NCBI GenBank assembly: GCA_023269085.1
Contig: JAHFML010000003.1
Coordinates: 52,863-116,862 of the forward strand
Origin: a bacterium
Lineage (GTDB): Bacteria; Patescibacteriota; Minisyncoccia; Phycocordibacterales; Phycocordibacteraceae
Length of the DNA: 64,000 nt
Direction of reading: 5' to 3'
The notes below the pieces were generated by a model. The model was not told the DNA's origin. It made no database searches and saw only the letters and a program-made list of their open reading frames with translations. A program made the translations under genes and the position numbers. Below, piece after piece: positions 1-59,297 of the stretch (its first letter is position 1; each line of letters opens with the position of its first letter).

Positions 1-300
1 TGGCTCGACTTCAGCCCGGTGCGCGGGCACGAACAGGACGGCAGGCGACCGGCGCTTATCGTTTCTCCGCACACGTATAATGCGAAGTCGGGGCTGGCGC
101 TCGCTTGCCCCATAACCTCACAGGTAAAGGGATACCCGTTTGAGGTCGCTTTCAAAGTGAAGCAGGTGCAGGGAGTTATTCTCGTCGACCAGATCCGCGG
201 GGTGGATTGGAAGGAGCGAAGGGCGGAGAAGATCGGTGCCGTTTCCGATTCTGTCATGCATGAGGTTCAAGAGTACCTCAAGAAGCTCATCGCTGAATAA
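1..300 (+). CDS. MazF/PemK-family endoribonuclease toxin (5' end runs off window start)
   Basis: Translation ...RRPALIVSPHTYNAKSGLALACPITSQVKGYPFEV... matches the conserved MazF/PemK core; the ORF continues upstream of position 1. Confidence 0.8.
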   Translation, partial: WLDFSPVRGHEQDGRRPALIVSPHTYNAKSGLALACPITSQVKGYPFEVAFKVKQVQGVILVDQIRGVDWKERRAEKIGAVSDSVMHEVQEYLKKLIAE

Positions 301-433
301 CCACCATGTGACGAAGTAGTTTCCATATAAAAATGTGAAAGTCCGACTTTCCAGAAATTGGGAAGTTGAAAGTGCGAGAGTGAGCCGTCGAAGGCGACCT
401 TCGACGGCCTTCGTTTTGTGCTACAATTAGCCC

Positions 434-730
434 ATGCAACCGACGATTCAAGAAATTGCAGAGAAGGCGAAGCCCGTATTCGAGAAGTACGGCATCTCGT
501 ATGCTGCGCTCTATGGGAGCATTGCGCGCGGTGAAGCGCGCCCAGATAGCGATGCTGATCTGCTTGTCGAGTATGACCGTCCGCTTGGGTTTGAATATTT
601 CGATATGCGCCGCGAGCTTGAAGAGGGTCTCGGCCGGCCGGTCGACATCATCACCGACGCGAGCATGAACAAGTTTTTGCGTCCGTACATCGTTCCCGAC
701 CTCACCCCCATCTATGGAGAAAAGCGATAG
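434..730 (+). CDS. mnt: Minimal nucleotidyltransferase (MNT) antitoxin of a HepT/MNT pair
   Basis: GS...ARGEARPDSDADLLV nucleotidyltransferase motif; overlaps the downstream HepT gene by 17 nt. Confidence 0.85.
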   Translation: MQPTIQEIAEKAKPVFEKYGISYAALYGSIARGEARPDSDADLLVEYDRPLGFEYFDMRRELEEGLGRPVDIITDASMNKFLRPYIVPDLTPIYGEKR

Positions 731-1064
731 TCCGTACCTCGCGCAGATTGCGGAGAATGTCACGAAGATACGAGCCTTTGTCGGCGACGAAGACTTTGAC
801 GCGTTCCTCGCGGACGGGAAGACGCAGAGCGCCGTCTTGATGCAGCTCCAGCAGATCGGCGAGCTCGCGAAGCGTGTTTCGCCGCAAGCGCAAGCGGAGA
901 CGCCATCGGTGCCGTGGCGCGATGTCACTGACTTTCGCAATGTGGTGGCGCATGAATATTATTCGGTGCAGTTGCCGGTCGTGTGGGAAATCATCACCGA
1001 TCAGCTCGCGCCGCTTGAAGTCGCTTGTGTTGAATATCTGAAAGCCCACCCGATACCGGAGTAG
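714..1064 (+). CDS. hepT: HepT (DUF86) RNase toxin
   Basis: C-terminal R-x4-H-x-Y motif (FRNVVAHEY); translationally coupled to MNT. Confidence 0.85.
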   Translation: MEKSDSPYLAQIAENVTKIRAFVGDEDFDAFLADGKTQSAVLMQLQQIGELAKRVSPQAQAETPSVPWRDVTDFRNVVAHEYYSVQLPVVWEIITDQLAPLEVACVEYLKAHPIPE

Positions 1065-1164
1065 GAGCCGCGGCCGGCAGAGCCGGCCGCGTGCTTGTTG
1101 ACGCTTCGGGGGCGAGGTGATACATTACTCGTACGCTCTTCGGGGCTTTATTTTTTACTGCTAC

Positions 1165-1434
1165 ATGGCAAAGACATCCCAGCTCGCGCGAATCGTCAAG
1201 AAGACGAAGCTCGTCGCTAAATATGCTGAAAAGCGCGCCGCCCTCAAGGCGGCGGGCGATGTCGCTGGTCTGCAGAAGCTCCCGAGAAACTCCTCGCCGG
1301 TCCGCTTGAAGAGCCGTTGCGCGATTACTGGTCGTTCGCGTGGCTATATGCGCGCCTTCGGCGTCTCGCGCATCCAGTTCCGCGAGATGGCGCTCGAGGG
1401 CAACATTCCGGGCGTTAAAAAAGCATCATGGTAA
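1165..1434 (+). CDS. rpsN: 30S ribosomal protein S14
   Basis: [29 protein letters not shown]...[39 protein letters not shown]; start taken at the internal Met of ORF 1117. Confidence 0.95.
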
Positions 1435-1832
1435 CAGACCGCATCGGCGATTTCATCATCCGCTTGCAGAACGCCGCGAAGGTGGGCAAGCGCGAGGCCA
1501 CTATGCCGTATTCGGCGCACGTGCTCGCTATCGCCAAGAAGCTCAAGAGCCTCGGCTTCATCGAGACGGTCGAGGTCGAAATAGTCGGCGATTCGACCGT
1601 GAAGAAGAACATCCTCGTCACGCTCGCCTTCGACGCGAAGGGGGCGCCGCGCTTGCGCGGCGTGAAGCGCATCAGCAAGCCGGGTCGTCGGCTCTATGTG
1701 TCCGCGGCCGAGGCGCACACGGTGAAGGGCGGTACGGGGAAGCGCATCATCTCGTCGTCGACCGGCATCGTCTCCGACGTCGAAGCCCGCAAGGGGAATG
1801 TCGGTGGCGAAAATCTCTTTGAGATCTGGTAG
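1428..1832 (+). CDS. rpsH: 30S ribosomal protein S8
   Basis: [16 protein letters not shown]... S8 signature; overlaps rpsN by 7 nt. Confidence 0.95.
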
Positions 1833-1846
1833 CCCTATAATACTCT

Positions 1847-2377
1847 ATGTCACGCCTCGCTAAAAAACCGATTGCCGCAGGGAAGACCGATATCTCGGTC
1901 GCGGGTGGCACCTTGACCGTGAAGGGCACCAAGGGCACCTTGACCAAGCGCGTCCACCCGACGATCGATATTGCGGTCGAAGCGGGCCACGTGACCGTCA
2001 CGCCGAAGGATCGCTCGCGGCTCGCGAAGGCGCTCACGGGCACCTTCGCCTCGCATGTGAAGAACATGGTGCAGGGCGTCGAGACGCCGTTTGTGAAGAA
2101 GCTTATCCTCGAAGGCGTCGGCTACAAGGTCGCGACCGACGGGAAGAATGTTGTGCTCACGGTCGGCTTCTCACACACGGTACCGCTCGCTATCCCCGAG
2201 GGTGTCGTGGCGAAGGTCGAGAAGAATATCATCACGCTCGAGAGCATTGATAAAGAAGTGCTCGGCCAGTTCGCCGCCAACATTCGCCGCGTGAAGCCGC
2301 CAGAGCCATATCTCGGCAAGGGCATCCGCTACGATGGCGAGGTTATCCGTCGCAAGCAGGGCAAGAAGGCCGTCTAG
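1847..2377 (+). CDS. rplF: 50S ribosomal protein L6
   Basis: MSRLAKKPIAAGKTDISVAGGTLTVKGTKGTL...; two L6 repeats. Confidence 0.95.
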   Translation: MSRLAKKPIAAGKTDISVAGGTLTVKGTKGTLTKRVHPTIDIAVEAGHVTVTPKDRSRLAKALTGTFASHVKNMVQGVETPFVKKLILEGVGYKVATDGKNVVLTVGFSHTVPLAIPEGVVAKVEKNIITLESIDKEVLGQFAANIRRVKPPEPYLGKGIRYDGEVIRRKQGKKAV

Positions 2378-2385
2378 TCATTTAT

Positions 2386-2739
2386 ATGCAAACACACGCA
2401 CCCACCACCAAGTCTGAGCTCCGCGAGCGTCGCCACGCGCGCGTCCGCGCTATCGTGAAGGGCACTGCCGAGCGACCGCGCCTCGCCGTCTACCGGAGCA
2501 ATCGCTTTGTCTCGGCCCAGCTCATCGACGACACGGCAGGGAAGACACTCGCGGCGTCGCACGGCCGCGAGTTCAAGGGTGCGCAATCGGTGCAGGCGAA
2601 GTCGGTCGGCACCGCGATGGCCGAGAAGGCGAAGAAGCTCGGTGTCACGACGATCGTCTTCGATCGCGCCGGCTATCGCTATGGCGGGCAGGTGCAGACG
2701 CTTGCCGAAGCCGCGCGCGAAGGAGGTCTCATCTTTTAA
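2386..2739 (+). CDS. rplR: 50S ribosomal protein L18
   Basis: RLAVYRSNRFVSAQLIDD...GYRYGGQVQTLAEAAREGGL. Confidence 0.95.
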   Translation: MQTHAPTTKSELRERRHARVRAIVKGTAERPRLAVYRSNRFVSAQLIDDTAGKTLAASHGREFKGAQSVQAKSVGTAMAEKAKKLGVTTIVFDRAGYRYGGQVQTLAEAAREGGLIF

Positions 2740-2742
2740 TAT

Positions 2743-3327
2743 ATGGCAACCATGACACCAGAAAAAGGAATTGGAGCAGAGGCAACCGCGACACCGATCG
2801 CCGCTACATCGGCACCAACCGCGTCGTCGCGAGGCTCACTCCGTGGCCGCGGGAGCCGGCCGGCTGGCCGTGGTGCTCGCCCGCCGCGCGAGCGCGGAGA
2901 GTTCGACTCGGTCACGATCGACGTCCGTCGCGTGGCGCGCGTTATGGCCGGCGGTCGTCGCTTCAACTTCAGCCTCGTGGTCGTCATCGGCGACAAGAAG
3001 GGTCGGGTCGGCGTCGGCCTTGGCAAGGGTGTCGACACGGCGCTCGCTATCGACAAGGCGACGCGCGACGCGAAGAAGCATCTCTTCACCGTCGCTCGTA
3101 CGCGATCAGGCTCGATCCCGCACGAAGTGATGGCGAAGTACGCCTCATCGACCGTCGAGATTATCCCGTCGGAGGGTCGCGGTCTCGTCGCCGGTACTGC
3201 CGTGCGCACCGTGCTCGATCTCGCCGGTGTCACCGATGTCGTGACCAAGATCCATTCACGTTCGAAGAACAAGCTCACGATCGCCCGCGCGACCATCGAC
3301 GCTTTGAAGCAATTGCGCACCGCCTAG
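2743..3327 (+). CDS. rpsE: 30S ribosomal protein S5
   Basis: VTIDVRRVARVMAGGRRFNFSLVVVIGDKKGRVGVGLGKG... S5 core with an Arg/Gly-rich N-terminal extension. Confidence 0.95.
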   Translation: MATMTPEKGIGAEATATPIAATSAPTASSRGSLRGRGSRPAGRGARPPRERGEFDSVTIDVRRVARVMAGGRRFNFSLVVVIGDKKGRVGVGLGKGVDTALAIDKATRDAKKHLFTVARTRSGSIPHEVMAKYASSTVEIIPSEGRGLVAGTAVRTVLDLAGVTDVVTKIHSRSKNKLTIARATIDALKQLRTA

Positions 3328-3337
3328 CCTCTTTACC

Positions 3338-3790
3338 ATGCAACTCAACACACTAGCTCCGAAGACAAAGAAAGAAAGCCACCCGAAGGTTGGGCGTGGC
3401 GGCAAGCGCGGTAAGACCAGCGGCAAGGGCGGCAAGGGTCAGACCGCGCGCGCCGGGCATCATATCCGCCCGGAGGTACGCGACCGGATCAAGAAACTCC
3501 CCAAGCTCCGCGGCCACGGCAAGAATCGTTCGCGCACCGTCCGCACCAATCGTATCGATGCGGCGGTCGTCAATCTCGCCGCGCTCGAAGCCGCCTTCAA
3601 AGCGGGTGAGGTCGTCTCGCCGGCAGCACTCCTCGCGAAAGGGCTCGTGCGCCGCGCGAAGGGTCGCGCGCCCGAGGTGAAGATCCTCGGCATGGGCACC
3701 TTGACCAAGGCGCTCACGATTCGCGGTTGTGTCCTCTCGGCGACCGCTCTTGCCGCGGTGCTCGCGGTCGGCGGCACCAACAATGATTAA
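3338..3790 (+). CDS. rplO: 50S ribosomal protein L15
   Basis: MQLNTLAPKTKKESHPKVGRGGKRGKTSGKGGKGQ... L15; begins 10 nt after rpsE with no rpmD (L30) in between. Confidence 0.95.
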   Translation: MQLNTLAPKTKKESHPKVGRGGKRGKTSGKGGKGQTARAGHHIRPEVRDRIKKLPKLRGHGKNRSRTVRTNRIDAAVVNLAALEAAFKAGEVVSPAALLAKGLVRRAKGRAPEVKILGMGTLTKALTIRGCVLSATALAAVLAVGGTNND

Positions 3791-5057
3791 TTCTTTTTTG
3801 CATAAGGTGAAGCTGGCGCTCGGCGATGCCGAGATCCGCTTCCGCATCCTCTTCGTCGTCGGCGCACTCGCCATCTTCCGGCTCCTTGCGGCTATTCCCA
3901 TCCCGGGAGTCGACAAGGCGGCGCTCGCGCAATTCTTCGCGAGCAATCAGTTTTTCGGTCTTTTGAATATCTTCTCGGGCGGCGGGCTCGCGCATCTCTC
4001 TATCGTGATGCTCGGCGTCGGCCCTTACATCACCGCTTCTATCGTGATGCAGCTCGCGACGATCGTCTTCCCGCAGGTGAAGGAGGCGTACTTCGAAGAT
4101 GGCGAGGCCGGTCGCGCGAAGTTCATCGAGTGGAGCCGCCTCCTCACGATACCGATCGCGGTCTTGCAGGCTATCGGCTTCCTCTTCTTGCTTCAGAATC
4201 AGCATGTCATCGGTCACTTGAGCACCGTCGCTCTCATCGCGAACATCGCAATCGTCACAGCCGGCTCGCTCCTCCTCATGTGGATCGGTGAGCTCGTGAC
4301 CGAGTTCGGTATTGGCAACGGCGTGTCGCTCATCATCCTCGCGGGTATCCTTGCGAGTGTACCGGCGAGCATCTCGCAGAGCCTCTTCGCCGCCTCGGCC
4401 GCGAACATCCCGGCCTATCTCGGCTTCATCATTCTCGCGGCCGCGATGATCTATGCGGTGGTGGTCGTTTCGGATGCCGAGCGTTCGATACCCATAGCGT
4501 ACGCCCGCGCCGTCCGCGGTGCGGCGATGGCGCAGGGAGCCGCAACGTATCTCCCGATTCGTCTCCTCCAAGCCGGCGTGATACCCATCATCTTTGCGCT
4601 CTCGCTCCTGCTCATCCCGCAGATGGCGCTCTCGATGCTCTCGACTCTGCACGTCTCCTTCGCACAGGGCGCGGCGCTCTGGTACACCGCCTTCCTCTCC
4701 AACCCGTGGCAGTACGGCGCTATCTACTTCGCGCTCGTGGTGCTCTTTACCTACTTCTATACCGCCGTCACCTTCGAGCCGAAGCGCGTCGCCGAGAATC
4801 TCCAGAAGACCGGCGCCTTCGTCCCGGGCGTGCGCCCCGGCCGCGAGACCGAGGAGTATATCAATAACGTGGTCAATCGCGTGACGCTTCCCGGAGCCTG
4901 CTTCCTCGGCCTCCTCGCGGTCTCGCCGTCGATTATCCAAGGGCTCACCGGCGTCACGACGCTCGTCCTTGGCGGCACGGCGCTCCTCATCGCGGTGCAG
5001 GTCATCCTCGACCTCGTGAACAAGATCGACGCCCAAGTCTCGCTTCGAGAATACTAA
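3783..5057 (+). CDS. secY: Preprotein translocase SecY
   Basis: MINSFLHKVKLALGDAEIRFRILFVVGALAIFR...MLGVGPYITASIVMQL...; 10 TM; ATG at 3783. Confidence 0.95.
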   Translation: MINSFLHKVKLALGDAEIRFRILFVVGALAIFRLLAAIPIPGVDKAALAQFFASNQFFGLLNIFSGGGLAHLSIVMLGVGPYITASIVMQLATIVFPQVKEAYFEDGEAGRAKFIEWSRLLTIPIAVLQAIGFLFLLQNQHVIGHLSTVALIANIAIVTAGSLLLMWIGELVTEFGIGNGVSLIILAGILASVPASISQSLFAASAANIPAYLGFIILAAAMIYAVVVVSDAERSIPIAYARAVRGAAMAQGAATYLPIRLLQAGVIPIIFALSLLLIPQMALSMLSTLHVSFAQGAALWYTAFLSNPWQYGAIYFALVVLFTYFYTAVTFEPKRVAENLQKTGAFVPGVRPGRETEEYINNVVNRVTLPGACFLGLLAVSPSIIQGLTGVTTLVLGGTALLIAVQVILDLVNKIDAQVSLREY

Positions 5058-5101
5058 AGCACGCGCCGCTTCGCGGCGTGTGGCGTGCTACTATAACAAC
5101 C

Positions 5102-5665
5102 ATGCAACCACGCACTATTTTTTTTATCGGCAAGCCCGGCTGCGGGAAGGGGACACAGGCGAAATTACTTGCACAAGAGACCGGCTGGCAGATTGTCTCT
5201 GCTGGCGACCAGTTCCGCGCCATCGCGCTCGAGGAGACGCCGGTCGGGCATAAGATCAAGGCGCAGATGGAGGCAGGCGATCTCGCGCCGCACTGGTTCG
5301 CGATGTATCTCTATCTGAAGTCGCTCTTCGCGGCAGACGAGGGCGCGGACATCATCTTCGACGGCTTCAACCGCGAGCTCTCTGAGGCGGTGCTCGTCGT
5401 CGACTCACTCGCGTGGCTCGGGCGCCCGTTCAATATCGTGAACCTTGTCATCTCGGACGAAGAAGTTCTCGCGCGTCTCGCGAAGCGGAAGGAAATAGAG
5501 GGTCGCGCCGATGACAATGTCGTCGAGGAGCGCTTGAAGGAGTTCCATCAGCACACTGATCCTGCGATCGCGATGTTCAGAGATGCGGGCGTCCTCATCG
5601 ACGTGAACGGCGATCAGGGTATCGAAGCTATTTCGGCCGATATCCGTTCGGCACTCGGCGTCTAG
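5102..5665 (+). CDS. adk: Adenylate kinase
   Basis: IFFIGKPGCGKGTQAKLLAQE... P-loop adenylate kinase. Confidence 0.93.
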   Translation: MQPRTIFFIGKPGCGKGTQAKLLAQETGWQIVSAGDQFRAIALEETPVGHKIKAQMEAGDLAPHWFAMYLYLKSLFAADEGADIIFDGFNRELSEAVLVVDSLAWLGRPFNIVNLVISDEEVLARLAKRKEIEGRADDNVVEERLKEFHQHTDPAIAMFRDAGVLIDVNGDQGIEAISADIRSALGV

Positions 5666-17887: not shown

Positions 17888-18604
17888 ATGTTGACCGACT
17901 CTCGCACCATCGCTCAAGCATACGGTCTTGGGCAAAAAGTTTTCTCCGCCGGCGAGGTTGCCGGTATGACGCCAGAGCTTTGGAATGCTCTGGCTCAAGA
18001 CGCGCGATTGTTTGCGCAGCTTCCGGCGATGATCCGCGGCTCTTTGGCGGATGCGTTGGCTGAACAGCGCGAACAGCAACCCAAGTTCTTCACTCACATC
18101 GCGACGACCAACCTTGCCGCGACTGTGGGCAAAAAGACGAGGAAGTGTTTCGTTGGCAGTCGCTATACGTATCGCGACAACGACTTCGACAACTGGCTTC
18201 CCGCCAATCAGCCATCCGCCGATGCCTGCGTTATCACAACGCTTGCTTCTGAGCAGGACTGGACGTTTGCCGAAGCCGCTGCCAAAGTCCTAGGTGTTGG
18301 CGCTGGCACGAACATCATCTTGCTCGGCAAAGCGCTCATCGAGAACGGTCATATCATGACCTTGGCGCAAGCTGAAGAAATGATCGAAGCCAACGAGCAC
18401 GGCGAGAACACCGGTATGCACCGCGATGGTCGGGGCAATTTCTTCTTCGTGGAAACGGAGGACGAAAATAATCCCGTCTCGGTTGGCGGCGTCGGTCGCG
18501 TTGAGCGCGCTTGGGTCGCGTACGTCGGCTGGCTCGTCAGCGGCGATCGCTGGGACGCTGGCGGTCGGCTCCTCGTCCGCAACTTGGACGCTTCGAAACT
18601 CTGA
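17888..18604 (+). CDS. DGR-1 target protein with C-terminal variable region
   Basis: SD AAAGGAGA 7 nt upstream of ATG 17888; C-terminal 36 codons form the VR. Confidence 0.75.
   Translation: MLTDSRTIAQAYGLGQKVFSAGEVAGMTPELWNALAQDARLFAQLPAMIRGSLADALAEQREQQPKFFTHIATTNLAATVGKKTRKCFVGSRYTYRDNDFDNWLPANQPSADACVITTLASEQDWTFAEAAAKVLGVGAGTNIILLGKALIENGHIMTLAQAEEMIEANEHGENTGMHRDGRGNFFFVETEDENNPVSVGGVGRVERAWVAYVGWLVSGDRWDAGGRLLVRNLDASKL
18475..18583 (+). repeat. DGR-1 variable repeat (VR)
   Basis: 109 nt aligning to the TR at 18863..18971; ~20 mismatches, 19 at TR adenines. Confidence 0.9.
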
Positions 18605-18862
18605 CACTTGGTCTCTTTCGAGTGTCCTCTAATTACTCCTCTCACGTATTACGCGTGCGAGGAGTATACTTTTGTCTGAACACGCTGGCATCTTCGGTTC
18701 CCAAACTTGAGGTGGCGAGGTTCCGGGTAAGTTCACCCGAAAAAAGAAATATAAGTTGGTGTGTCGCGCTGGTGGGCTCACGGCCCCGAATAAGATACAG
18801 CTCAGAGAGCATTCGATGGGTGGTAACCTTCGCTGGTGGTAAGGATGGTGCGACACACAAAG

Positions 18863-18971
18863 CGTCTCGGTTGGCAACGTCAATCGCGATGAGCGCGATT
18901 GGAACGCGAACGTCAACCGGCTCGACAACGACAATCGCTGGAACGCTGACAATCGGCTCCTCGTCCGCAAC
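18863..18971 (+). repeat. DGR-1 template repeat (TR)
   Basis: Intergenic; rich in AAC/AAT/GAC codons in the VR frame; all but one difference from the VR are at adenines. Confidence 0.9.
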
Positions 18972-18976
18972 AGATC

Positions 18977-19336
18977 TTACTTTCTCTCGCTTTCTGCGGG
19001 AGTTTTCTTTTCAAGATATGAACGCCATGCGACCAGCATTTTGCTTGCATCAACAAGTAGTCCGCTTATACGTACATGTTGAGCGTTCGTAATCGCATTA
19101 CTCTCCCACCCGACAAGTAGAAGGAATTTCGCCACATCGAGTCGGGCAATTGAGATGTTGAGCGCAGAAATCTTTTGCGCGGACGGAAGATATGCCGCAG
19201 AAAAGGCAGATTCAAGCGTGTCGAGAAGAGCCGTGTCAATTCTCGTACCGATAGTCTGTCGCTTCGTTTTGGCAACGTGAGGGAGTGCTGCTTGCCAAGC
19301 GAGATACGCCTCCTTCAATTTCGATACTACGGGCAC
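18977..19336 (-). CDS. avd: Accessory variability determinant (Avd) homologue, DGR-1
   Basis: 119-aa four-helix-bundle-type protein; resembles Bordetella phage Avd; homologous to the 55141..55509 ORF; GTG start. Confidence 0.7.
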   Translation of the reverse strand: MPVVSKLKEAYLAWQAALPHVAKTKRQTIGTRIDTALLDTLESAFSAAYLPSAQKISALNISIARLDVAKFLLLVGWESNAITNAQHVRISGLLVDASKMLVAWRSYLEKKTPAESERK

Positions 19337-19361
19337 GAGCTTTTCTTGTTGCGGAAACGTC

Positions 19362-19373
19362 GGGGGGGGGGGG
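19362..19373 (+). repeat. Homopolymeric G12 tract in the 50-nt divergent avd/RT intergenic region
   Basis: cgtcGGGGGGGGGGGGtacgttcagaagaATG; lies 14 nt upstream of the RT ATG and 26 nt upstream of the avd start. Confidence 0.95.
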
Positions 19374-19386
19374 TACGTTCAGAAGA

Positions 19387-20409
19387 ATGGATAGAATAAA
19401 TATCACTCATTCCTTCGACAATATCACCTTGGTAGATAATTTGCTCGACGCGTGGAAAGAATTCTTGCGCGGCAAACAGAAGAGGAAAGACGTGCAAGTA
19501 TTCGGATATAATCTAATTGAAAATATAAAAAGCATCCACGCGGACCTCATTTCCGGCATCTACCAGCACGGCCAGTACGAGCACTTCAAAATCAACGACC
19601 CAAAGCCCCGCGACATCCACAAAGCGAGCGTGCGCGACCGGCTCGTGCACCATGCCATTTATCGCATTCTCTACCCATTCTTCGATCGCACTTTTATCAG
19701 CGACTCCTACTCCTGCCGCAATGGGAAGGGGACGCACAAAGCCATGAATCGCTTTAGAGCCTTTGCGCGCAAAGTATCGAAGAATGACACGCGCACTGCT
19801 TGGGTCTTGAAGTGCGACATACGCAAGTTCTTCGCATCGATTGATCAGCCAACGCTCCTCGCCCTCTTGAGAGAACGCATTTCAGACGAACGCACCCTGC
19901 TACTCCTGCAACGAGTTATCGAGAGCTTCTCAAGTACAGCGAGAGGGAAAGGCCTCCCGCTCGGCAATCTCACCTCACAGCTCCTCGTGAACATCTACAT
20001 GAACGAGTCCGATCAATTCGTGAAGCATATACTCAAAGCGAAATACTATATCCGCTATGCCGATGACTTCGTATTCATCTCCCACGATCGCAGAGAACTC
20101 GAGGCGCTTCTGCCTCGTGTCGATGCCTTTTTGCGCGACCGGCTCAAGCTCGAATTGCACCCGAATAAAGTCTCAATCGCCACGCTCGCTTCGGGTATCG
20201 ACTTCTTGGGCTGGGTGCATTTCTCTGACCATCGCGTCTTGCGAGGCGCGACGAAGCGACGGATGTTGCGGAGGATTGAAGAGACGAGCGACAAGCCGGA
20301 GGTGATGAGCTCGTATCTGGGGATGCTAGAGCATGGAAATGGGTACAAGTTGCGAGAAGAGATTATGTATTTGCATACACTCACCGAGGCGCGTACCATG
20401 GTGGCATGA
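19387..20409 (+). CDS. DGR-type reverse transcriptase, DGR-1
   Basis: RT motifs including YADD and the DGR-characteristic LGNLTSQ (motif 4, in place of the group II QGxxxSP); start could alternatively be the upstream in-frame ATG at 19285. Confidence 0.9.
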   Translation: MDRINITHSFDNITLVDNLLDAWKEFLRGKQKRKDVQVFGYNLIENIKSIHADLISGIYQHGQYEHFKINDPKPRDIHKASVRDRLVHHAIYRILYPFFDRTFISDSYSCRNGKGTHKAMNRFRAFARKVSKNDTRTAWVLKCDIRKFFASIDQPTLLALLRERISDERTLLLLQRVIESFSSTARGKGLPLGNLTSQLLVNIYMNESDQFVKHILKAKYYIRYADDFVFISHDRRELEALLPRVDAFLRDRLKLELHPNKVSIATLASGIDFLGWVHFSDHRVLRGATKRRMLRRIEETSDKPEVMSSYLGMLEHGNGYKLREEIMYLHTLTEARTMVA

Positions 20410-26477: not shown

Positions 26478-26492
26478 GAACGAAATCAATTT

Positions 26493-26517
26493 CGGGTGGA
26501 CACTAGGTGTCCACCCG
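26493..26517 (+). repeat. 25-bp inverted-repeat element copy 1 (cgggtggacac-tag-gtgtccacccg)
   Basis: 11-bp perfect arms with a 3-nt spacer; 4 copies in the window. Confidence 0.95.
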
Positions 26518-27175: not shown

Positions 27176-27216
27176 CGCGGGCACGCCAGAGGCGTGCCCG
27201 CGGTTTCTCTTTTTTA
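27176..27216 (+). terminator. Rho-independent terminator
   Basis: cgcgggcacgcc agag gcgtgcccgcg + tttctctttttt. Confidence 0.7.
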
Positions 27217-27228
27217 CTTCTATCCTCG

Positions 27229-27253
27229 TGGGTGGACACTAGGTGTCCACCCA
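27229..27253 (+). repeat. 25-bp inverted-repeat element copy 2
   Basis: tgggtggacactaggtgtccaccca. Confidence 0.95.
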
Positions 27254-31228: not shown

Positions 31229-31279
31229 CTGTGCTCTCAAGATACCATGCCGCCCGCGCGTCGTGCAAGTCGATGAAAA

Positions 31280-31304
31280 CGGGTGGACACTAGGTGTCCA
31301 CCCG
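31280..31304 (+). repeat. 25-bp inverted-repeat element copy 3
   Basis: cgggtggacactaggtgtccacccg. Confidence 0.95.
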
Positions 31305-40406: not shown

Positions 40407-40419
40407 TCGGGGGGGGGGG
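40407..40419 (+). repeat. Homopolymeric G13 tract 40 nt upstream of the surface-protein gene
   Basis: cctcGGGGGGGGGGGGGtacgctacag; flanks closely resemble the G12 tract region of DGR-1 (cgtcG12tacgttcag). Confidence 0.95.
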
Positions 40420-40459
40420 GGTACGCTACAGGTATATCCACCGCGCATAACCCATACCC

Positions 40460-41374
40460 ATGAAAGAACTAACTCGTTCAACGCTCGTCGCCATCGTCGC
40501 CTCATCGCTCTCCCTCCTCGCCTTCTACGCGGTGAGCGCTGGCGCACAATCAGCCTGGACTCCAGCTCCAGCTAACGCTCCCTCAGGCAACGTGGCAGGC
40601 CCCCTCACCACGGGCGCAACCGGTCAGAGCAAAGCCGGTAACCTCATGCTCAACACCGACGGCACCCTCGCCAACGGCCTCATCGTCGCGAATGGGAATG
40701 TGGGTATTGGGACGGTGGCGCCATACTTGCCACTCGTCGTTTATAGTTCGTCAGCCAATGGTTCTGCTGTAGCGCTTGACAGACCGGCTGGCTTGGCTGG
40801 GATGTATCAGGTAAGAACAAACGGATCTCCTCGATGGGTTTTTGGTGCAGACCAAACAACAGAGAGTGGCTCGAATTCCGGATCAAACTTTCGAATTATC
40901 GGGTATAATGATGACGGTCTTGGATTAAATAACGCATTAACAATAAATAGATCCTCCGGCAACGTCGGTATTGGAACGACGAATCCGAACGTCTCGAAGG
41001 GGGCTGGCGGGTATGTCGACGCCAAAGACGTCTATCTCCGTGACGCCGGGAAGTGGGCGAGTGAGGTTGGTGGGAGTGGGAGTATCGTAGCAGGATGCGC
41101 AAAAAATAGGAGAGCAGTTGATTTTTGCGGAAGAGTTAACAACAACCCAGCAGGACTAATCGCTGATGTTTGTTGGGGAGGCGCATCATTTACTACTATT
41201 GAAATAGGCACCCTCGGAGCGGATTGGGGAGCGAGTACCGTTTATACGACAAAGACATTTTCTTGCCCGAGCGGATCCACTGTTCGACTCGTTGGGACTA
41301 TGGGCGAAGGCTGTGGGAGTAACTCATATTCGTCGTCTAGCGTATCACTGGATACCTTTTTCTGTATCAAATAA
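40460..41374 (+). CDS. Secreted Gly/Asn-rich repeat protein (fibre/surface-protein-like)
   Basis: Signal peptide (LVAIVASSLSLLAFYAVSAGAQS); repeated NGNVGIGT / SGNVGIGTTNP motifs; C-terminal Cys-rich region. Confidence 0.6.
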   Translation: MKELTRSTLVAIVASSLSLLAFYAVSAGAQSAWTPAPANAPSGNVAGPLTTGATGQSKAGNLMLNTDGTLANGLIVANGNVGIGTVAPYLPLVVYSSSANGSAVALDRPAGLAGMYQVRTNGSPRWVFGADQTTESGSNSGSNFRIIGYNDDGLGLNNALTINRSSGNVGIGTTNPNVSKGAGGYVDAKDVYLRDAGKWASEVGGSGSIVAGCAKNRRAVDFCGRVNNNPAGLIADVCWGGASFTTIEIGTLGADWGASTVYTTKTFSCPSGSTVRLVGTMGEGCGSNSYSSSSVSLDTFFCIK

Positions 41375-51913: not shown

Positions 51914-53956
<2,043 letters not shown>

Positions 53957-54120: not shown

Positions 54121-54714
54121 ATGAGCGCACAACAGAAGCAAATCACGAAACTAGTGGCCGCTCTGGTCGAGTTTTCTGACCAGTTCGGCCAGATGTCGAC
54201 CGAGGATTGCCAATGGGCAATCCAAAACACGAAAGCGGCAATCGGCCTCTTCGTAGAGGCGGTGAGGAATCGCCCGATAGCAGCTCTGGTCGGGTTGCCA
54301 GAAGGCACGGTCATCCGTCGCGTGAAGGTCGACCGCTCGCATTCTCCGCAGAAAATGGTGAACGCGACCGGCCGTAGGCAGTACATCGACAAGGACATCC
54401 TCGCGACGATGCCTTTGGGCGAAGGCGACGAGGTGGATGTGTACTTCGTACCGACCAAGCGCTTCGTTTTGGCAAGTGAGGTCTCGGCGTTTCTCGCGCA
54501 GTATGGTCTCGTTCCCGACCCGCGCGCGCAAACGGCGGTGAACGAAGCCGATCCGACCTTCGCCGACGACCATCCGAACGGAACGCAATGGAGCGATTTT
54601 TGCTACCTGACGTTCTACCGCTGGTATGACGAGCGGGACGTGTACTGCAACCGCGACGACCGCGTCTGGCGCGGCTATTGGTTCCTCTCGGGTGTCCCGA
54701 CTCCCCGCAAGTAA
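54121..54714 (+). CDS. DGR-2 target protein with C-terminal variable region
   Basis: SD AAGGAGA 5 nt upstream; VR occupies the last ~36 codons (…CYLTFYRWYDERDVYCNRDDRVWRGYWFLSGVPTPRK). Confidence 0.75.
   Translation: MSAQQKQITKLVAALVEFSDQFGQMSTEDCQWAIQNTKAAIGLFVEAVRNRPIAALVGLPEGTVIRRVKVDRSHSPQKMVNATGRRQYIDKDILATMPLGEGDEVDVYFVPTKRFVLASEVSAFLAQYGLVPDPRAQTAVNEADPTFADDHPNGTQWSDFCYLTFYRWYDERDVYCNRDDRVWRGYWFLSGVPTPRK
54601..54707 (+). repeat. DGR-2 variable repeat (VR)
   Basis: 107 nt aligning to 55025..55131; ~14 mismatches, all at TR adenines. Confidence 0.9.
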
Positions 54715-54763
54715 GTCCTCGGGTCTTTGAGTATAAGAACTCTTTAGACCCTTAACCCTTTGT

Positions 54764-54792
54764 GCGCCGCTTTCCCAAGCGGCGCATTTTGT
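54764..54792 (+). terminator. Rho-independent terminator after DGR-2 target
   Basis: gcgccgc tttcccaa gcggcgc + attttgt. Confidence 0.7.
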
Positions 54793-55024
54793 ATATGATG
54801 CAAATGGTAGTAGGCGAATACGGAAGCGATTACGGTTTCTTCCTGCCGAATCCAGTATCCGTACGTTGAGAACGTGTGCGATTACGGTTGCATATGGAGG
54901 ATGTACGCAGAAACTTCAAAAAATGAAGATACTTGGTGTGAAGTGCTGGCGCATTACCGATGCCGAATACGATTCAACCTTGAGAATACTCGATGGGTGG
55001 TGGCACAGATGGCGCTCCATACAT

Positions 55025-55131
55025 TGCTACCTGACGTTCAACCGCTGGAATGACGAGCGGAACGTGAACTGCAACCGCAACGACAACGACTGGAACGACA
55101 ATTGGTTCCTCTCGGGTGTCCCGACTCCCCG
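55025..55131 (+). repeat. DGR-2 template repeat (TR)
   Basis: AAC-rich in VR frame (…NRWNDERNVNCNRNDNDWNDNWF…); intergenic. Confidence 0.9.
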
Positions 55132-55140
55132 TAACTCTCT

Positions 55141-55509
55141 TCATTTCTCGCCCGAACCTCTATGTTCGGGCGAGTTTTGTTTAACGAGCTGCCCATTCCA
55201 TCCACCAAGCATTCTCCCGACCTCCTCAAGTGGCATCGAGAGAGCGATGTATTTCTTCGTATCGAGCGATTTGGTCTCCCAGAGGATGAGTAAGAATATT
55301 TTTAGCGTATCGAGTTTACGAATAGCGAGACGCACCCACGGCTGTTTCTCAGTTTTTGAGAGAAAGCTTGCACTTGCGACTGCTTCAATCAACGCAACGA
55401 ATTCCGCGTCAACTGTTCCACCGAGCGTGTGCCGATGGGTCTTCGGTATGGTTTGATAAAATCCATACCATATAATATACGCATGCTTAATACGCTCGAG
55501 CACCGGCAA
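55141..55509 (-). CDS. avd: Avd homologue, DGR-2
   Basis: 122 aa; ...LSMPLEEVGRMLGGWNGQLVKQ resembles the Avd C-terminus; TTG start. Confidence 0.7.
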   Translation of the reverse strand: MPVLERIKHAYIIWYGFYQTIPKTHRHTLGGTVDAEFVALIEAVASASFLSKTEKQPWVRLAIRKLDTLKIFLLILWETKSLDTKKYIALSMPLEEVGRMLGGWNGQLVKQNSPEHRGSGEK

Positions 55510-55516
55510 GAGCCTC

Positions 55517-55526
55517 GGGGGGGGGG
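55517..55526 (+). repeat. Homopolymeric G10 tract between divergent avd-2 and RT-2
   Basis: agcctcGGGGGGGGGGagcttcgaag; 8 nt upstream of avd-2 start. Confidence 0.95.
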
Positions 55527-55606
55527 AGCTTCGAAGAATCGAATTCGTTCATACCTATGAGCATATCATCTCGATCGAGAACCTTCTCGACGCGTGGCGA
55601 GAATTC

Positions 55607-56542
55607 GTGAGAGGGAAGAAGAAGCGTGCGGATGTGCAAGAGTTCGAGAGAGACTTGATGCAAAATGTCATATCGTTGCATCGTTATCTCGTGTCTGGCG
55701 CGTACCAGCACGGCCAGTACGAGCGCTTCAAAATCAACGACCCCAAGCCTCGCGACATCCACAAAGCGAGCGTGCGCGATCGGCTCGTGCACCATGCCAT
55801 CTATCGCATTCTATATCCATTCTTCGACCGCACTTTCATCAGCGACTCCTATTCCTGCCGCAATGGGAAGGGAACGCACAGAGCCATGAATCGCTTTAGA
55901 GCCTTTGCGCGCAAAGTATCGAAGAATGACACGCGCACTGCTTGGGTCTTGAAGTGCGACATACGCAAGTTCTTCGCCTCGATTGATCAGTCAACGCTCC
56001 TCGTCATCTTGAAGAGACGCATAACAGACGAACGCACGCTGACACTTCTGCAACGAGTTATCGAGAGCTTCCGCACACCCTGTGCAACACCTGGTGTTGC
56101 ACAAAAAGGCCTCCCGCTTGGCAACCTTACCTCACAACTCCTCGTGAACATCTACATGAACGAGTTCGATCAATTCGTGAAGCACGCGCTCAAAGCAAGA
56201 TACTATCTCCGCTATGCCGATGACTTCGTATTCATCTCTCACGACCGCAGAGAGCTCGAGGCGCTTCTGCCTCGGGTCGATGCCTTTTTGCGCGACCGGC
56301 TCAAGCTCGAACTGCATCCAGACAAAGTCTCAATCGCCACGCTCGCTTCGGGTATCGACTTCTTGGGCTGGGTGCATTTCTCTGACCATCGCGTTGTGCG
56401 AGGCGCGACGAAGCGGCGGATGTTGCGGAGGATTGAAGAGATGGGTGGCAAGCCAGAGGTGGTGAGCTCGTATCTGGGGATGCTCTCGCACGGGAACGCG
56501 TACCGGCTTGTTGCTCATATTTCAGAACAGAAGGAAAAGTGA
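55607..56542 (+). CDS. DGR-type reverse transcriptase, DGR-2
   Basis: ~85% identical to RT-1; YADD and LGNLTSQ motifs; no ATG equivalent to RT-1 Met1 (ATG->ATC), so the true N-terminus is unclear. Confidence 0.85.
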   Translation: MRGKKKRADVQEFERDLMQNVISLHRYLVSGAYQHGQYERFKINDPKPRDIHKASVRDRLVHHAIYRILYPFFDRTFISDSYSCRNGKGTHRAMNRFRAFARKVSKNDTRTAWVLKCDIRKFFASIDQSTLLVILKRRITDERTLTLLQRVIESFRTPCATPGVAQKGLPLGNLTSQLLVNIYMNEFDQFVKHALKARYYLRYADDFVFISHDRRELEALLPRVDAFLRDRLKLELHPDKVSIATLASGIDFLGWVHFSDHRVVRGATKRRMLRRIEEMGGKPEVVSSYLGMLSHGNAYRLVAHISEQKEK

Positions 56543-59007: not shown

Positions 59008-59297
59008 GCGGGGTAGAGGAGAGGTACCTCGGGAGGCTTGAGTTATTCGGGCGTGCGCGCGAGCAATTGCGCGTAAGATCATCTGTCAAATTCGGCGAAC
59101 CCCTCTCGCGAAAACGAAAGGCAACACCGAGCCAAGCTTTGCGAATAATCGCAAGGAAGGTGTAGAGACTAGACGGCAGACATCCTGAGCGTAGTCGAAG
59201 GATGAAGGCATAGTCCAGACCACAAACGAAAGGCAATGAAAATTGTAGTGGTAAGCATAACCTCCAGACCCTGGTTCGATTCCAGGCCCCGCAACAA
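59008..59297 (+). ncRNA. ssrA: Candidate tmRNA-like RNA (tRNA-like T-arm plus acceptor-like 3' end); identity uncertain
   Basis: 3' end ...CCTGG-TTCGATT-CCAGG-CCCCGCA-A mimics T-arm plus acceptor strand; complementary GCGGGG ~285 nt upstream; 410-nt ORF-free interval; followed by a strong terminator; tag ORF not confidently identified. Confidence 0.4.

Follow-up and report, generated by a model that had tools for sequence, protein, structure and literature searches.

The two cassettes (DGR-1, DGR-2) found in the window, i.e., the whole 64-kb stretch of DNA analysed here, are chromosomal DGRs of the standard CPR/Patescibacteria type with architecture B3. As for how such a cassette is expressed, we consider it probable that there are four expression units per cassette, with a TR RNA acting in trans and an overlap of avd and RT that holds a slippery repeat. 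That is, the target gene, carrying the VR 3'-terminally and followed by a terminator of its own, would form the first unit. The second would be a small-RNA gene for the template, comprising a -10 box, a folded leader of 190-230 nt, the TR and, about 12 nt further on, a hairpin with U-run. The divergent genes avd and RT, overlapping at their 5' ends, would form units three and four, and the template RNA would act in trans together with Avd and RT. The possible importance lies in the mechanism of a very common, unstudied class of CPR DGRs that cannot yet be studied in culture.

Composition and layout of the cassettes

Both cassettes show the same order and strands, namely target/VR (+), TR (+), avd (-), RT (+), as a previous reading made from the sequence alone had claimed. 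The respective features are:

17888..18604, + strand: DGR-1 target gene (start placed near 17888 after the 238-aa gene call of the identical contig L086)
18475..18584, + strand: VR-1, at the 3' end of target 1
18636..18675, + strand: terminator-like GC hairpin with T-rich tail of target 1 (read from the sequence; conserved in Avd-1-type loci)
18863..18972, + strand: template repeat TR-1
18977..19336, - strand: called core ORF of avd-1, headed by GTG at 19336
19387..20409, + strand: RT-1, DGR reverse transcriptase with ATG start; His8 CAT at 19408-19410
54121..54714, + strand: DGR-2 target gene
54600..54712, + strand: VR-2
54762..54799, + strand: terminator hairpin of target 2 (hairpin 54762-54787) with overlapping promoter-like site
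55024..55136, + strand: template repeat TR-2
55141..55509, - strand: called core ORF of avd-2, headed by TTG at 55509
55529..56542, + strand: RT-2; homology to RT-1 begins at CTT 55529

Each VR lies within the last ~40 codons of its own target ORF. VR-1 and TR-1 differ at 21 positions, 20 of which are TR adenines, and 12 of the 14 differences between VR-2 and TR-2 are of this kind. The 3' segments of VR and TR are identical (last 19 nt in DGR-1, ~35 nt in DGR-2) and divergent beyond, i.e., they are IMH/IMH*-like; they contain adenines, all of which are unchanged in both cassettes. The target ORF of DGR-1 is open from 17738 to its end at 18604 (+) and is without Pfam or NCBIfam match. A -10-like TATACT (18665-18670) sits inside the T-rich tail of its hairpin, and the terminator of target 2 is overlapped by a promoter-like TTCCCA-16-TATGAT with the -10 at 54794-54799.

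The RT matches Pfam RVT_1 (E=3e-24), and its best match among PDB sequences is the Bordetella phage DGR RT (8ub7_A, E=8e-47), with a group II intron RT at 5e-18. Its translation contains the motif LGNLTSQ, which we take to be a mark of DGR RTs. The identification of the small minus-strand ORFs as Avd, for which the sequence-only reading had considered a lack of protein conservation, is borne out by 1841 homologues for Avd-2 and 55 for Avd-1 as well as by whole-profile matches to NCBIfam NF033474 (E=3e-8 and 1.5e-15, both below the model's curated cutoff). Furthermore, the AlphaFold model of Avd consists of four helices (pLDDT 91.8), and its best PDB match in a fold search is the Bordetella phage Avd 4dwl (TM 0.80/0.90). 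This likeness was found by the fold search, while the Avd profile gave no match to PDB sequences. A co-directional avd elsewhere, also considered in the earlier reading, is not present in the 64-kb window, which holds no further avd or RT copies besides the two cassettes and no rRNA genes above the Rfam threshold. With a DGR-clade RT, A-specific TR/VR differences, an IMH-like segment and Avd, both cassettes are DGRs.

Their layout, which had been called atypical, is the catalogued one. Architecture B3 has TR-(avd)-RT as its core, avd being reverse-stranded, and makes up 90% of the CPR DGRs in the set of Wu et al. 2018 (PMC5758913). Compared with the CPR DGRs of this architecture (DGR clade 2, Roux et al. 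2021, PMC8144416), both window cassettes show the same layout without difference, and they share with them the single adjacent target with C-terminal VR, the presence of Avd and the chromosomal location. Our comparison covered about 100 related loci. Of 80 related loci from Patescibacteria, 71-74 have this layout as well: RT is divergent from avd in 74/80, and the succession of VR, ~340-nt spacer, TR and, at a most frequent distance of 6 nt, the avd stop is found with A-specific mismatches in 71/80. The Avd-1-type loci (L086-L095) are laid out like the window cassettes, and a contig identical to DGR-1 is present in SRR14366760. For Avd-2, the nearest loci, at 82-89% identity, belong to MAGs of Paceibacterota and Kaiserbacteria, and the relatives as a whole come from these and similar MAGs. 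Being the usual CPR form, the layout itself adds nothing new. For the TR leader, the dual-coded hairpin and the avd repeat treated below, we found no description in the CPR DGR papers considered.

With regard to Bordetella phage BPP-1, the likeness comprises the RT (nearest to bRT, 8ub7_A), the Avd fold (4dwl, 8ub7), the A-specific TR/VR differences and a stem-loop directly 3' of TR. The gene order differs, i.e., avd-TR-brt in BPP-1, whereas avd of the window cassettes follows the TR on the opposite strand.

Start of the RT genes and state of DGR-2

The short avd/RT intergenic regions described earlier were recovered, with 50 nt in DGR-1 (avd GTG to RT ATG) and ~100 nt in DGR-2 when counted to the GTG at 55607. 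Directly ahead of RT-1 we find:

19374..19379, + strand: -10-like TACGTT, with the RT-1 ATG 7 nt downstream

The RT-1 mRNA would be leaderless. A candidate -35 element of the RT within the first avd codons agreed, by eye, at only 3-4 of 6 positions, and we make no claim on it.

RT-2 indeed has no ATG at the position of RT-1 Met1, which in the protein alignment faces CTT 55529-55531; the nearest near-cognate codon is ATC 55538, opposite Ile4. Nucleotide similarity had placed Met1 opposite this ATC, a placement we dropped given the protein alignment. The RT-2 frame is open from 55460 to 56542.

A decaying DGR-2 would be another explanation, in which RT-2 is not produced owing to the loss of its start codon and -10 box, and in which any recent change of VR-2 was introduced by RT-1 in trans. 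We consider this rather unlikely. Although there is no in-frame ATG, GTG or TTG before 55607 and the hexamer after the G tract reads AGCTTC, the RT-2 ORF is intact (338 codons), and the missing canonical start is common to the closest relatives from genomes of other species (L001-L004, L006, L010), two of which (L001, L002) also keep ATC at position 4. The start-less RT-2 therefore looks like a clade trait and not like a recent lesion. The 90.4% nucleotide identity of RT-1 and RT-2 over 783 nt, a point in favour of decay, stands against very different cassette leaders and Avd proteins that are only 29% identical, as well as against the 12 A-specific differences in VR-2.

Probable start of avd and the repeat near it

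Non-ATG codons (GTG, TTG) do head the avd ORFs as called, but their interpretation as weak start codons is not supported. The codon aligned with the window's TTG is a non-start Leu codon (TTA, CTA, CTT or CTC) in 44/82 relatives, and among 40 such loci avd lacks any canonical in-frame start in 21. Further upstream there is a conserved ATG, which is the reverse complement of RT His8. Read antisense from this ATG, the frame meets no stop before the repeat in 41/41 loci, while the other two antisense frames carry stops in 37/41 and 35/41 loci, respectively; the lack of stops is in part imposed by RT coding, given that the frame shares some of its length with RT codons. Loci without a repeat, representing ~3-4 independent lineages, are in frame with the His8 ATG in 8/8 cases. 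The repeats of the window are:

19362..19373, no strand assigned: G12 repeat of DGR-1, poly-C (Pro codons) on the avd strand; directly upstream of TACGTT
55517..55526, no strand assigned: G10 repeat of DGR-2

The probable ATG of avd-1 (19410-19408) is out of frame here at a distance of 74 nt, and G13 or G10 restores the frame. The same holds for the probable ATG of avd-2 (55552-55550, distance 43 nt), for which G9 or G12 is required. With both copies out of frame in the assembly, avd expression would be off or leaky. In L087 (G10), avd is in frame with a different upstream ATG, not that of His8, and this gives an Avd of 147 aa.

From these alignments, the GTG and TTG starts are probably artefacts of ORF calling, i.e., the first start-like codons left in a truncated ORF, and the true avd start is probably the upstream ATG. 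The gene would thus begin at the His8-antisense ATG, continue through the poly-C repeat with its Pro codons and then enter the four-helix core. For annotation this implies that avd starts in such genomes are probably miscalled and that frameshifted copies are not to be taken for pseudogenes.

Alternatively, Avd could truly start at the GTG/TTG site or at a non-canonical codon there, such that the repeat would be non-coding with a purely transcriptional role, be it that of a spacer or of an UP-like element, in the promoter of RT, of avd or of both. The codon statistics above speak against such a start, and we regard this explanation as unlikely. It is in line with the TAnnnT found directly behind the G tract in 30/53 loci, 16 of which have it exactly 7 nt ahead of the RT start, and with a third tract of the window (G13 at 40409-40421) that stands before an unrelated gene and is likewise followed by a -10-like hexamer, TACGCT. 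There is also no in-frame excess over chance among repeat-bearing loci, of which 27/67 are in frame with an upstream ATG compared to an expected third. The kind of repeats observed, on the other hand, speaks against this explanation. Most are G7-13 (53 loci), the others have units of 2, 4 or 7 nt, and arrays of 3- or 6-nt units are absent among the surveyed loci. The units are stop-free on the avd strand, while TGA occurs in three of the repeat types when read on the RT strand. In addition, the arrays reach 28-77 nt in some loci, which is too long for a -35/-10 spacer.

A probable separate unit for the template RNA

The evidence for a separate template RNA is found on both sides of the TR:

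18677..18862, + strand: structured leader of the TR-1 RNA (predicted 5' boundary)
18984..19012, + strand: terminator-like hairpin CTCTCGC-tttct-GCGGGAG followed by TTTTCTTTTC; antisense of the last avd-1 codons
54806..55023, + strand: structured leader of the TR-2 RNA with hairpins P1 and P2, an A-rich linker with AAAUGAAGA and the long-range helix P3
55147..55184, + strand: terminator-like hairpin (11 bp) followed by TTTTGTTTAA; antisense of the avd-2 codons KQNSP...GEK*

A TAnnnT box is located 4-7 nt upstream of the conserved 5' end of the leader in 56/57 loci. For the TR-2-type leader, in which P3 encloses two small hairpins, 39 of 57 predicted pairs show compensatory changes (45 sequences); for the TR-1-type leader, these are 15 of 50 pairs (7 Avd-1-type loci). 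A local CUUC/GAAG hairpin within the leader linker was discarded, given that it is not kept in L043 and L080. Screening both cassettes against Rfam with a permissive threshold provided only sub-threshold chance matches, i.e., no Rfam family for the leader.

Downstream, the terminator scan matches 18984-19002 and 55147-55174, that is, a hairpin with T-run within ~12 nt of the TR. All 6 predicted pairs of this hairpin show compensatory changes (61 sequences). Synonymous variation of avd is suppressed only in the last ~14 codons (AAA 73/78, CAA 74/76, AAC 76/76), while codons 1-108 vary as usual without extra constraint and thus hold no conserved RNA element. Based on the GC stem-loop, the U-run and their conservation, we predict an intrinsic terminator. 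Instead of or besides that, the hairpin may be a candidate for Avd binding, as a stem-loop directly 3' of TR is predicted to bind Avd in 207/278 DGRs (Handa et al. bioRxiv). Together, this suggests that the template RNA is a small structured gene of its own, with promoter, terminator and RNA ends as predicted from the sequence.

The sequence-only reading had instead considered a TR-to-RT transcript running antisense through avd. With TR and RT made in one piece, sense and antisense transcription would interfere with or control one another, and the antisense of avd would provide the priming spacer. In favour of this, only avd separates TR from RT, which share a strand, the essential spacer of the Bordetella phage sits between TR and brt (PMC6182149), and read-through at intrinsic terminators is never zero. 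This transcript would nevertheless have to pass the conserved, covarying hairpin with T-run directly past the TR and cross avd codons that show no trace of a further RNA constraint. Further points against it are the -10 box ahead of the conserved structured RNA upstream of TR and the -10-like box found 7 nt before the RT start in many loci. We thus consider it very unlikely.

The separate template RNA is organized differently from the one of BPP-1, which needs 20 nt upstream and a 140-nt spacer downstream of TR and primes from Sp A56 (PMC6182149). In the window cassettes, sequence and synonymous-site constraint end ~50 nt past the TR, such that a BPP-1-type conserved RNA of ~140 nt is not found there, while ~200 nt of covarying structure lie upstream of TR. 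The RNA scaffold, i.e., the spacer Sp 3' of TR in the Bordetella phage, would here reside mostly 5' of TR, and the window system may work like BPP-1 despite the different layout of its RNA. In the one DGR whose mechanism is understood, scaffold and primer sit 3' of TR; here, the leader is a candidate for both. A precedent for a separately promoted TR RNA is the DGR of Trichodesmium erythraeum, where the TR has its own promoter and yields an abundant 265-nt small RNA (PMC4143802). It differs in belonging to another DGR lineage, in its many remote targets and in that no avd antisense overlap is described.

With regard to priming, the leader motif AAAUGAAGA is complementary to UCUUCAUUU just 3' of TR. 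The pairing of AAAUGAAGA and UCUUCAUUU would put leader RNA where a primer is needed and may thereby serve priming. It is mostly invariant with weak covariation (one pair with GC:24, AU:3, GU:3), and the observed covariation value is reached by 13-18 of 500 shuffles. The base after GAAG, unpaired in 10/31 sequences, was excluded from this duplex. As in the msr-msd RNA of retrons, a structured non-template RNA is located 5' of the template, and a duplex of the 5' and 3' flanks would bring a priming nucleotide to the template's 3' end. This is a resemblance only, given the weakly covarying pairing here, the different RT clade of retrons and the absence of msDNA from the window cassettes. With its predicted boundaries and covariation-backed fold, the template RNA can be synthesised and tried with recombinant Avd-RT.

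Length variation of the repeat

Scanning metagenomes by pattern for variants of the tract in one species gave no match, and the variants considered here stem from looked-up contigs and from members of sequence clusters. The Avd-1-type relatives show G9, G10, G11, G12 and G17. Among nine contigs with 98-100% identical 250-nt flanks, we observe C8, C10 and C12, and one species has C10 in 32 and C11 in 11 contigs. In other lineages, 2, 3, 7 and 11 copies of TTGG are found between conserved flanks, and L018 with (TGGT)2 is in frame while its sister locus L053 with (TGGT)3 is not. Avd N-termini within single clusters of 90% identity cover all three frames and contain 2-4 Pro. The exact-protein look-up of P0116 returned identical C10 contigs only, since the tract belongs to the called protein.

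Homopolymers of 8-13 nt are error-prone and L067 breaks into Ns at the repeat, but sequencing or assembly errors without biological meaning can hardly explain differences of 2 and 4 nt (C8, C10, C12) that each recur in several independent assemblies, the C10 and C11 contigs of one species, or the 2-, 4- and 7-nt repeats at the same site in other lineages.

Known contingency loci include the poly-G/C tracts within reading frames or promoters of Campylobacter and Neisseria and the (TA)n tract between the divergent genes hifA and hifB of H. influenzae. The avd repeat is like these in its unit size (one nucleotide or 2-7 nt), in its place where an ORF begins, beside a -10 box and between divergent genes, in its length polymorphism among near-identical strains and in the lack of units in multiples of 3 nt. 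By sequence it is a candidate contingency locus, i.e., a slippable tract in a 5' coding/promoter region that varies in length among near-identical strains. It differs in that the genes under its putative control are a mutagenesis machine and not a surface antigen. The avd of BPP-1 is not known to contain a repeat tract.

Slippage of the repeat would move avd into and out of frame. It may alter the transcription of RT as well, given that the -10-like box located 7 nt ahead of the RT start directly adjoins the repeat. That is, the expression of avd, and possibly of RT, would be phase-variable. If true, this would render targeted hypermutation heritable yet reversible, i.e., switched on and off, in very small genomes. 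More tentatively, and with some doubt on our side, one may envision a CPR DGR machine that is under stochastic control via the avd repeat, which would turn Avd, and perhaps RT, on and off or adjust their level in subpopulations, and that uses a free-standing, permuted DGR RNA with the scaffold for protein binding and priming 5' of TR, in which the flank duplex sets the cDNA start in a retron-like topology. In one species, an ATG is available in all three frames, such that the repeat would alter the N-terminus of Avd there and not switch Avd off.

Cassettes and their proteins

Two DGR cassettes (DGR-1 and DGR-2) are present in the window, each with a target gene, a variable repeat at its 3' end (VR), a template repeat (TR), avd and a reverse transcriptase gene (RT).

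Parts of the two DGR cassettes (window positions)
ending at 18604, + strand: DGR-1 target ORF
18475-18584, + strand: VR-1
18863-18972, + strand: TR-1
18977-19336, minus strand: avd-1 ORF, 119 codons
19387-20409, + strand: RT-1
54121-54714, + strand: DGR-2 target
54600-54712, + strand: VR-2
55024-55136, + strand: TR-2
55141-55509, minus strand: avd-2 ORF, 122 codons
55460 to 56542, + strand: RT-2 open frame

Between TR and VR there are 21 differences in DGR-1 and 14 in DGR-2, of which 20/21 and 12/14 fall at TR adenines, respectively. Within each pair, the 3' ends are identical, with adenines retained, i.e., they are IMH/IMH*-like. Directly after VR and before the target terminator, we observe a conserved run of short CTTnG-like repeats or of an inverted repeat (window 54715-54760 and the spacer starts of the related Avd-2-type loci L001-L080). 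It may represent the IMH-adjacent hairpin, which is a known feature of other DGRs.

The minus-strand ORFs are Avd. Both match the NCBIfam Avd model over its whole length, with scores short of its curated cutoff (E=3e-8 and 1.5e-15), and the predicted Avd-2 structure is a four-helix bundle (pLDDT 91.8) with Bordetella phage Avd as best PDB match (4dwl; TM 0.80/0.90). For RT-1, the best PDB match is the Bordetella DGR RT (8ub7_A, E=8e-47). The sequence-only reading thus gave part order and strands correctly for both cassettes, as coordinates, TR/VR pairs and protein matches agree. It also rightly took the small ORFs for true Avd, given their protein-level conservation (1841 homologues for Avd-2, 55 for Avd-1). 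No additional avd or RT copy was found in the 64 kb of the window, i.e., there is no co-directional avd elsewhere in it.

Layout among relatives

The order TR-(avd)-RT, where parentheses denote the reverse strand, is catalogued as architecture B3 (Wu et al. 2018, PMC5758913). An Avd profile search of species-representative genomes provided relatives in 299 stretches, of which we kept 80 loci, nearly all from Patescibacteria MAGs. In 74/80 loci, avd has RT directly upstream of it on the opposite strand, and 71/80 show a VR/TR pair with adenine-specific differences on the RT strand. The modal distance from TR end to avd stop codon is 6 nt, and about 340 nt separate VR end and TR start. An identical layout is found for the rarer Avd-1 type (L086-L095). 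Judged by these sequences, the lineage normally has this layout, which is not atypical as had been proposed; both cassettes are ordinary members of a known CPR DGR class.

One Avd-1-type DGR (L093, positions 1-5357) is located between ligA and gatC-gatA, the chromosomal site of the window's Avd-2-type DGR-2. The shared site suggests long occupancy with cassette or avd exchange.

The template repeat as a probable separate RNA unit

The spacer between VR and TR is strongly conserved across relatives. A TAnnnT box follows the target-gene terminator, 4-7 nt before the conserved start GG(T/C)A(G/A)TAGG of the leader (the RNA segment 5' of TR) in 56/57 loci, and carries a TG extension in 29 of the 57. 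For the Avd-2 type, the leader spans about 230 nt, and its predicted fold comprises two long hairpins, an A-rich linker and a long-range helix of 12 bp, which surrounds two small hairpins and ends just 5' of TR; compensatory changes are found in 39/57 predicted pairs. The Avd-1-type leader is shorter and has the 3' domain in common; here, 15 of 50 predicted pairs are compensated among only 7 sequences. Rfam holds no family corresponding to the leader. TR looks like a small RNA gene of its own, for which a TR RNA with separate promoter in Trichodesmium provides a precedent (PMC4143802).

About 12 nt 3' of TR, both cassettes show a hairpin followed by TTTTGTTTT, matched by a terminator scan. The hairpin is nearly universal among relatives, its inner pairs covary, and it is antisense to the C-terminal tail of avd (KQNSP...GEK* in Avd-2, KKTP...ERK* in Avd-1), which is of low confidence in the Avd-2 model. 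Synonymous variation drops only in the tail codons (AAA 73/78, CAA 74/76, AAC 76/76), while the remaining ~108 avd codons vary ordinarily. Since the constraint is confined to the tail, the conserved RNA element extends no further into avd antisense. A TR-to-RT transcript running antisense through avd, as previously envisaged, is neither needed nor favoured. Handa et al. (bioRxiv) predicted an Avd-binding stem-loop just 3' of TR in 207/278 DGRs, CPR included, having considered only 40 nt upstream; our hairpin may both terminate transcription and be this stem-loop.

In Bordetella phage, the DGR RNA depends on 20 nt 5' and 140 nt 3' of TR, with Sp A56 as priming site for the cDNA (PMC6182149). 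In the cassettes studied here, the bulk of conserved structure lies upstream of TR. The leader motif AAAUGAAGA is complementary to UCUUCAUUU, located between TR and hairpin, with 90% of cells paired and weak covariation (one pair is GC:24, AU:3, GU:3). In such a duplex, the leader strand would have its 3' side adjacent to the 3' end of TR, where a primer is needed, making it a candidate leader-to-flank link for priming.

The avd 5' end

The reading of weak avd starts holds insofar as GTG and TTG head the called ORFs. However, the codon aligned with the avd-2 TTG is TTA, CTA, CTT or CTC in 44/82 relatives, such that this position is not the family's start. An ATG antisense to the His8 codon of RT opens an avd-strand frame that is stop-free up to a simple repeat in 41/41 loci, while the other two frames contain stops in 37/41 and 35/41. 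This ATG is in frame in 8/8 repeat-free loci (few lineages; L030 with its (GCG)3 included), and repeat-bearing loci are in frame with an upstream ATG in 27/67 cases, i.e., near chance. For avd-1, the upstream ATG at 19410 (74 nt from GTG) is out of frame, which a tract of G13 or G10 would correct; for avd-2, the respective ATG is at 55552 (43 nt from TTG), and G9 or G12 would bring it into frame. In the Avd-1-type locus L087 (G10), another upstream ATG is in frame and gives a 147-aa Avd. GTG and TTG are thus best read as probable ORF-finder output 3' of a tract that shifts the frame. Some initiation at them, at a low level, is possible because the upstream out-of-frame ORFs end 7 and 20 nt past these codons.

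The repeat is present in every lineage, about 8 nt upstream of the TTG-aligned codon. It is G7-G13 in 53 loci, while others carry (TTGG)n, (CTGG)n, (GATT)n, (CTGA)n, (TTCG)n, (GT)n, (CT)n or repeats of one of two 7-nt units. Arrays with units of 3 or 6 nt are absent from this site among the loci, apart from a short (GCG)3 in L030. With (TGGT)2, avd is in frame in L018; it is out of frame in the sister locus L053 with (TGGT)3. Nine contigs from different samples show C8, C10 or C12 between flanks of 98-100% identity, and within one species the tract is C10 in 32 contigs but C11 in another 11. In a single 90%-identity cluster, Avd N-termini are spread over the three frames and contain 2-4 prolines, and in one species an ATG is available in every frame. 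The repeat thus appears to lie inside the avd 5' end, and its length varies in nature. Structured leader, hairpin dual-coded with the avd tail and hypervariable avd repeat appear undescribed in the literature searched; their functional reading is what we infer from sequence.

In the assembly of L067, the sequence gives way to Ns precisely at the (CTGG)n array (~3400-3500), and the Avd-1-type L090 has a G17 tract, which suggests extreme tract instability or assembly difficulty.

RT starts and RT gene relations

TAnnnT immediately follows the tract in 30/53 poly-G loci, 16 of them with the box exactly 7 nt before the RT start, including DGR-1 (TACGTT, 7 nt, ATG). This suggests a leaderless RT mRNA, with the tract within the promoter spacer. 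As the sequence-only reading noted, RT-2 lacks an ATG matching RT-1 Met1: CTT is at the aligned position, and no in-frame ATG, GTG or TTG occurs before 55607. The closest relatives (L001-L004, L006, L010) also miss a canonical start, so that its absence is, by this comparison, a clade trait; ATC at RT position 4 is conserved in L001 and L002.

In L004-L007 and L010, an ATG (CTCATGGAG...) stands just past the G tract, one base out of the RT frame, which has no canonical start except GTG in L005. Recoding, non-AUG initiation or inactivity may apply.

Along 783 nt (19561-20327 vs. 55703-56484), the two RT genes are 90.4% identical in nucleotide sequence, while their first ~55 codons, the leaders and the Avd proteins (29% identity) are diverged. 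Such similarity amid diverged flanks suggests recombination or gene conversion between the resident cassettes.

Other features of the window

Only three tracts of at least 9 G/C occur in the 64 kb. The third, G13 at 40409-40421, has a -10-like TACGCT behind it, and 39 nt past the tract is the ATG of a 304-codon ORF (40460-41374) with hydrophobic N-terminus; the site has in common with DGR-1 the design of a G tract directly followed by a -10-like box. A group I intron match (RF00028) is located at 59030-59235 on the + strand with 56.2 bits (Rfam gathering score 50). Finally, the palindromic repeat GGGTGGACAC(T/C)(A/T)(G/A)GTGTCCACCC is present in four copies (26478-26517, 27214-27253, 31265-31304, 52236-52275), which may be terminators or a REP-like element.
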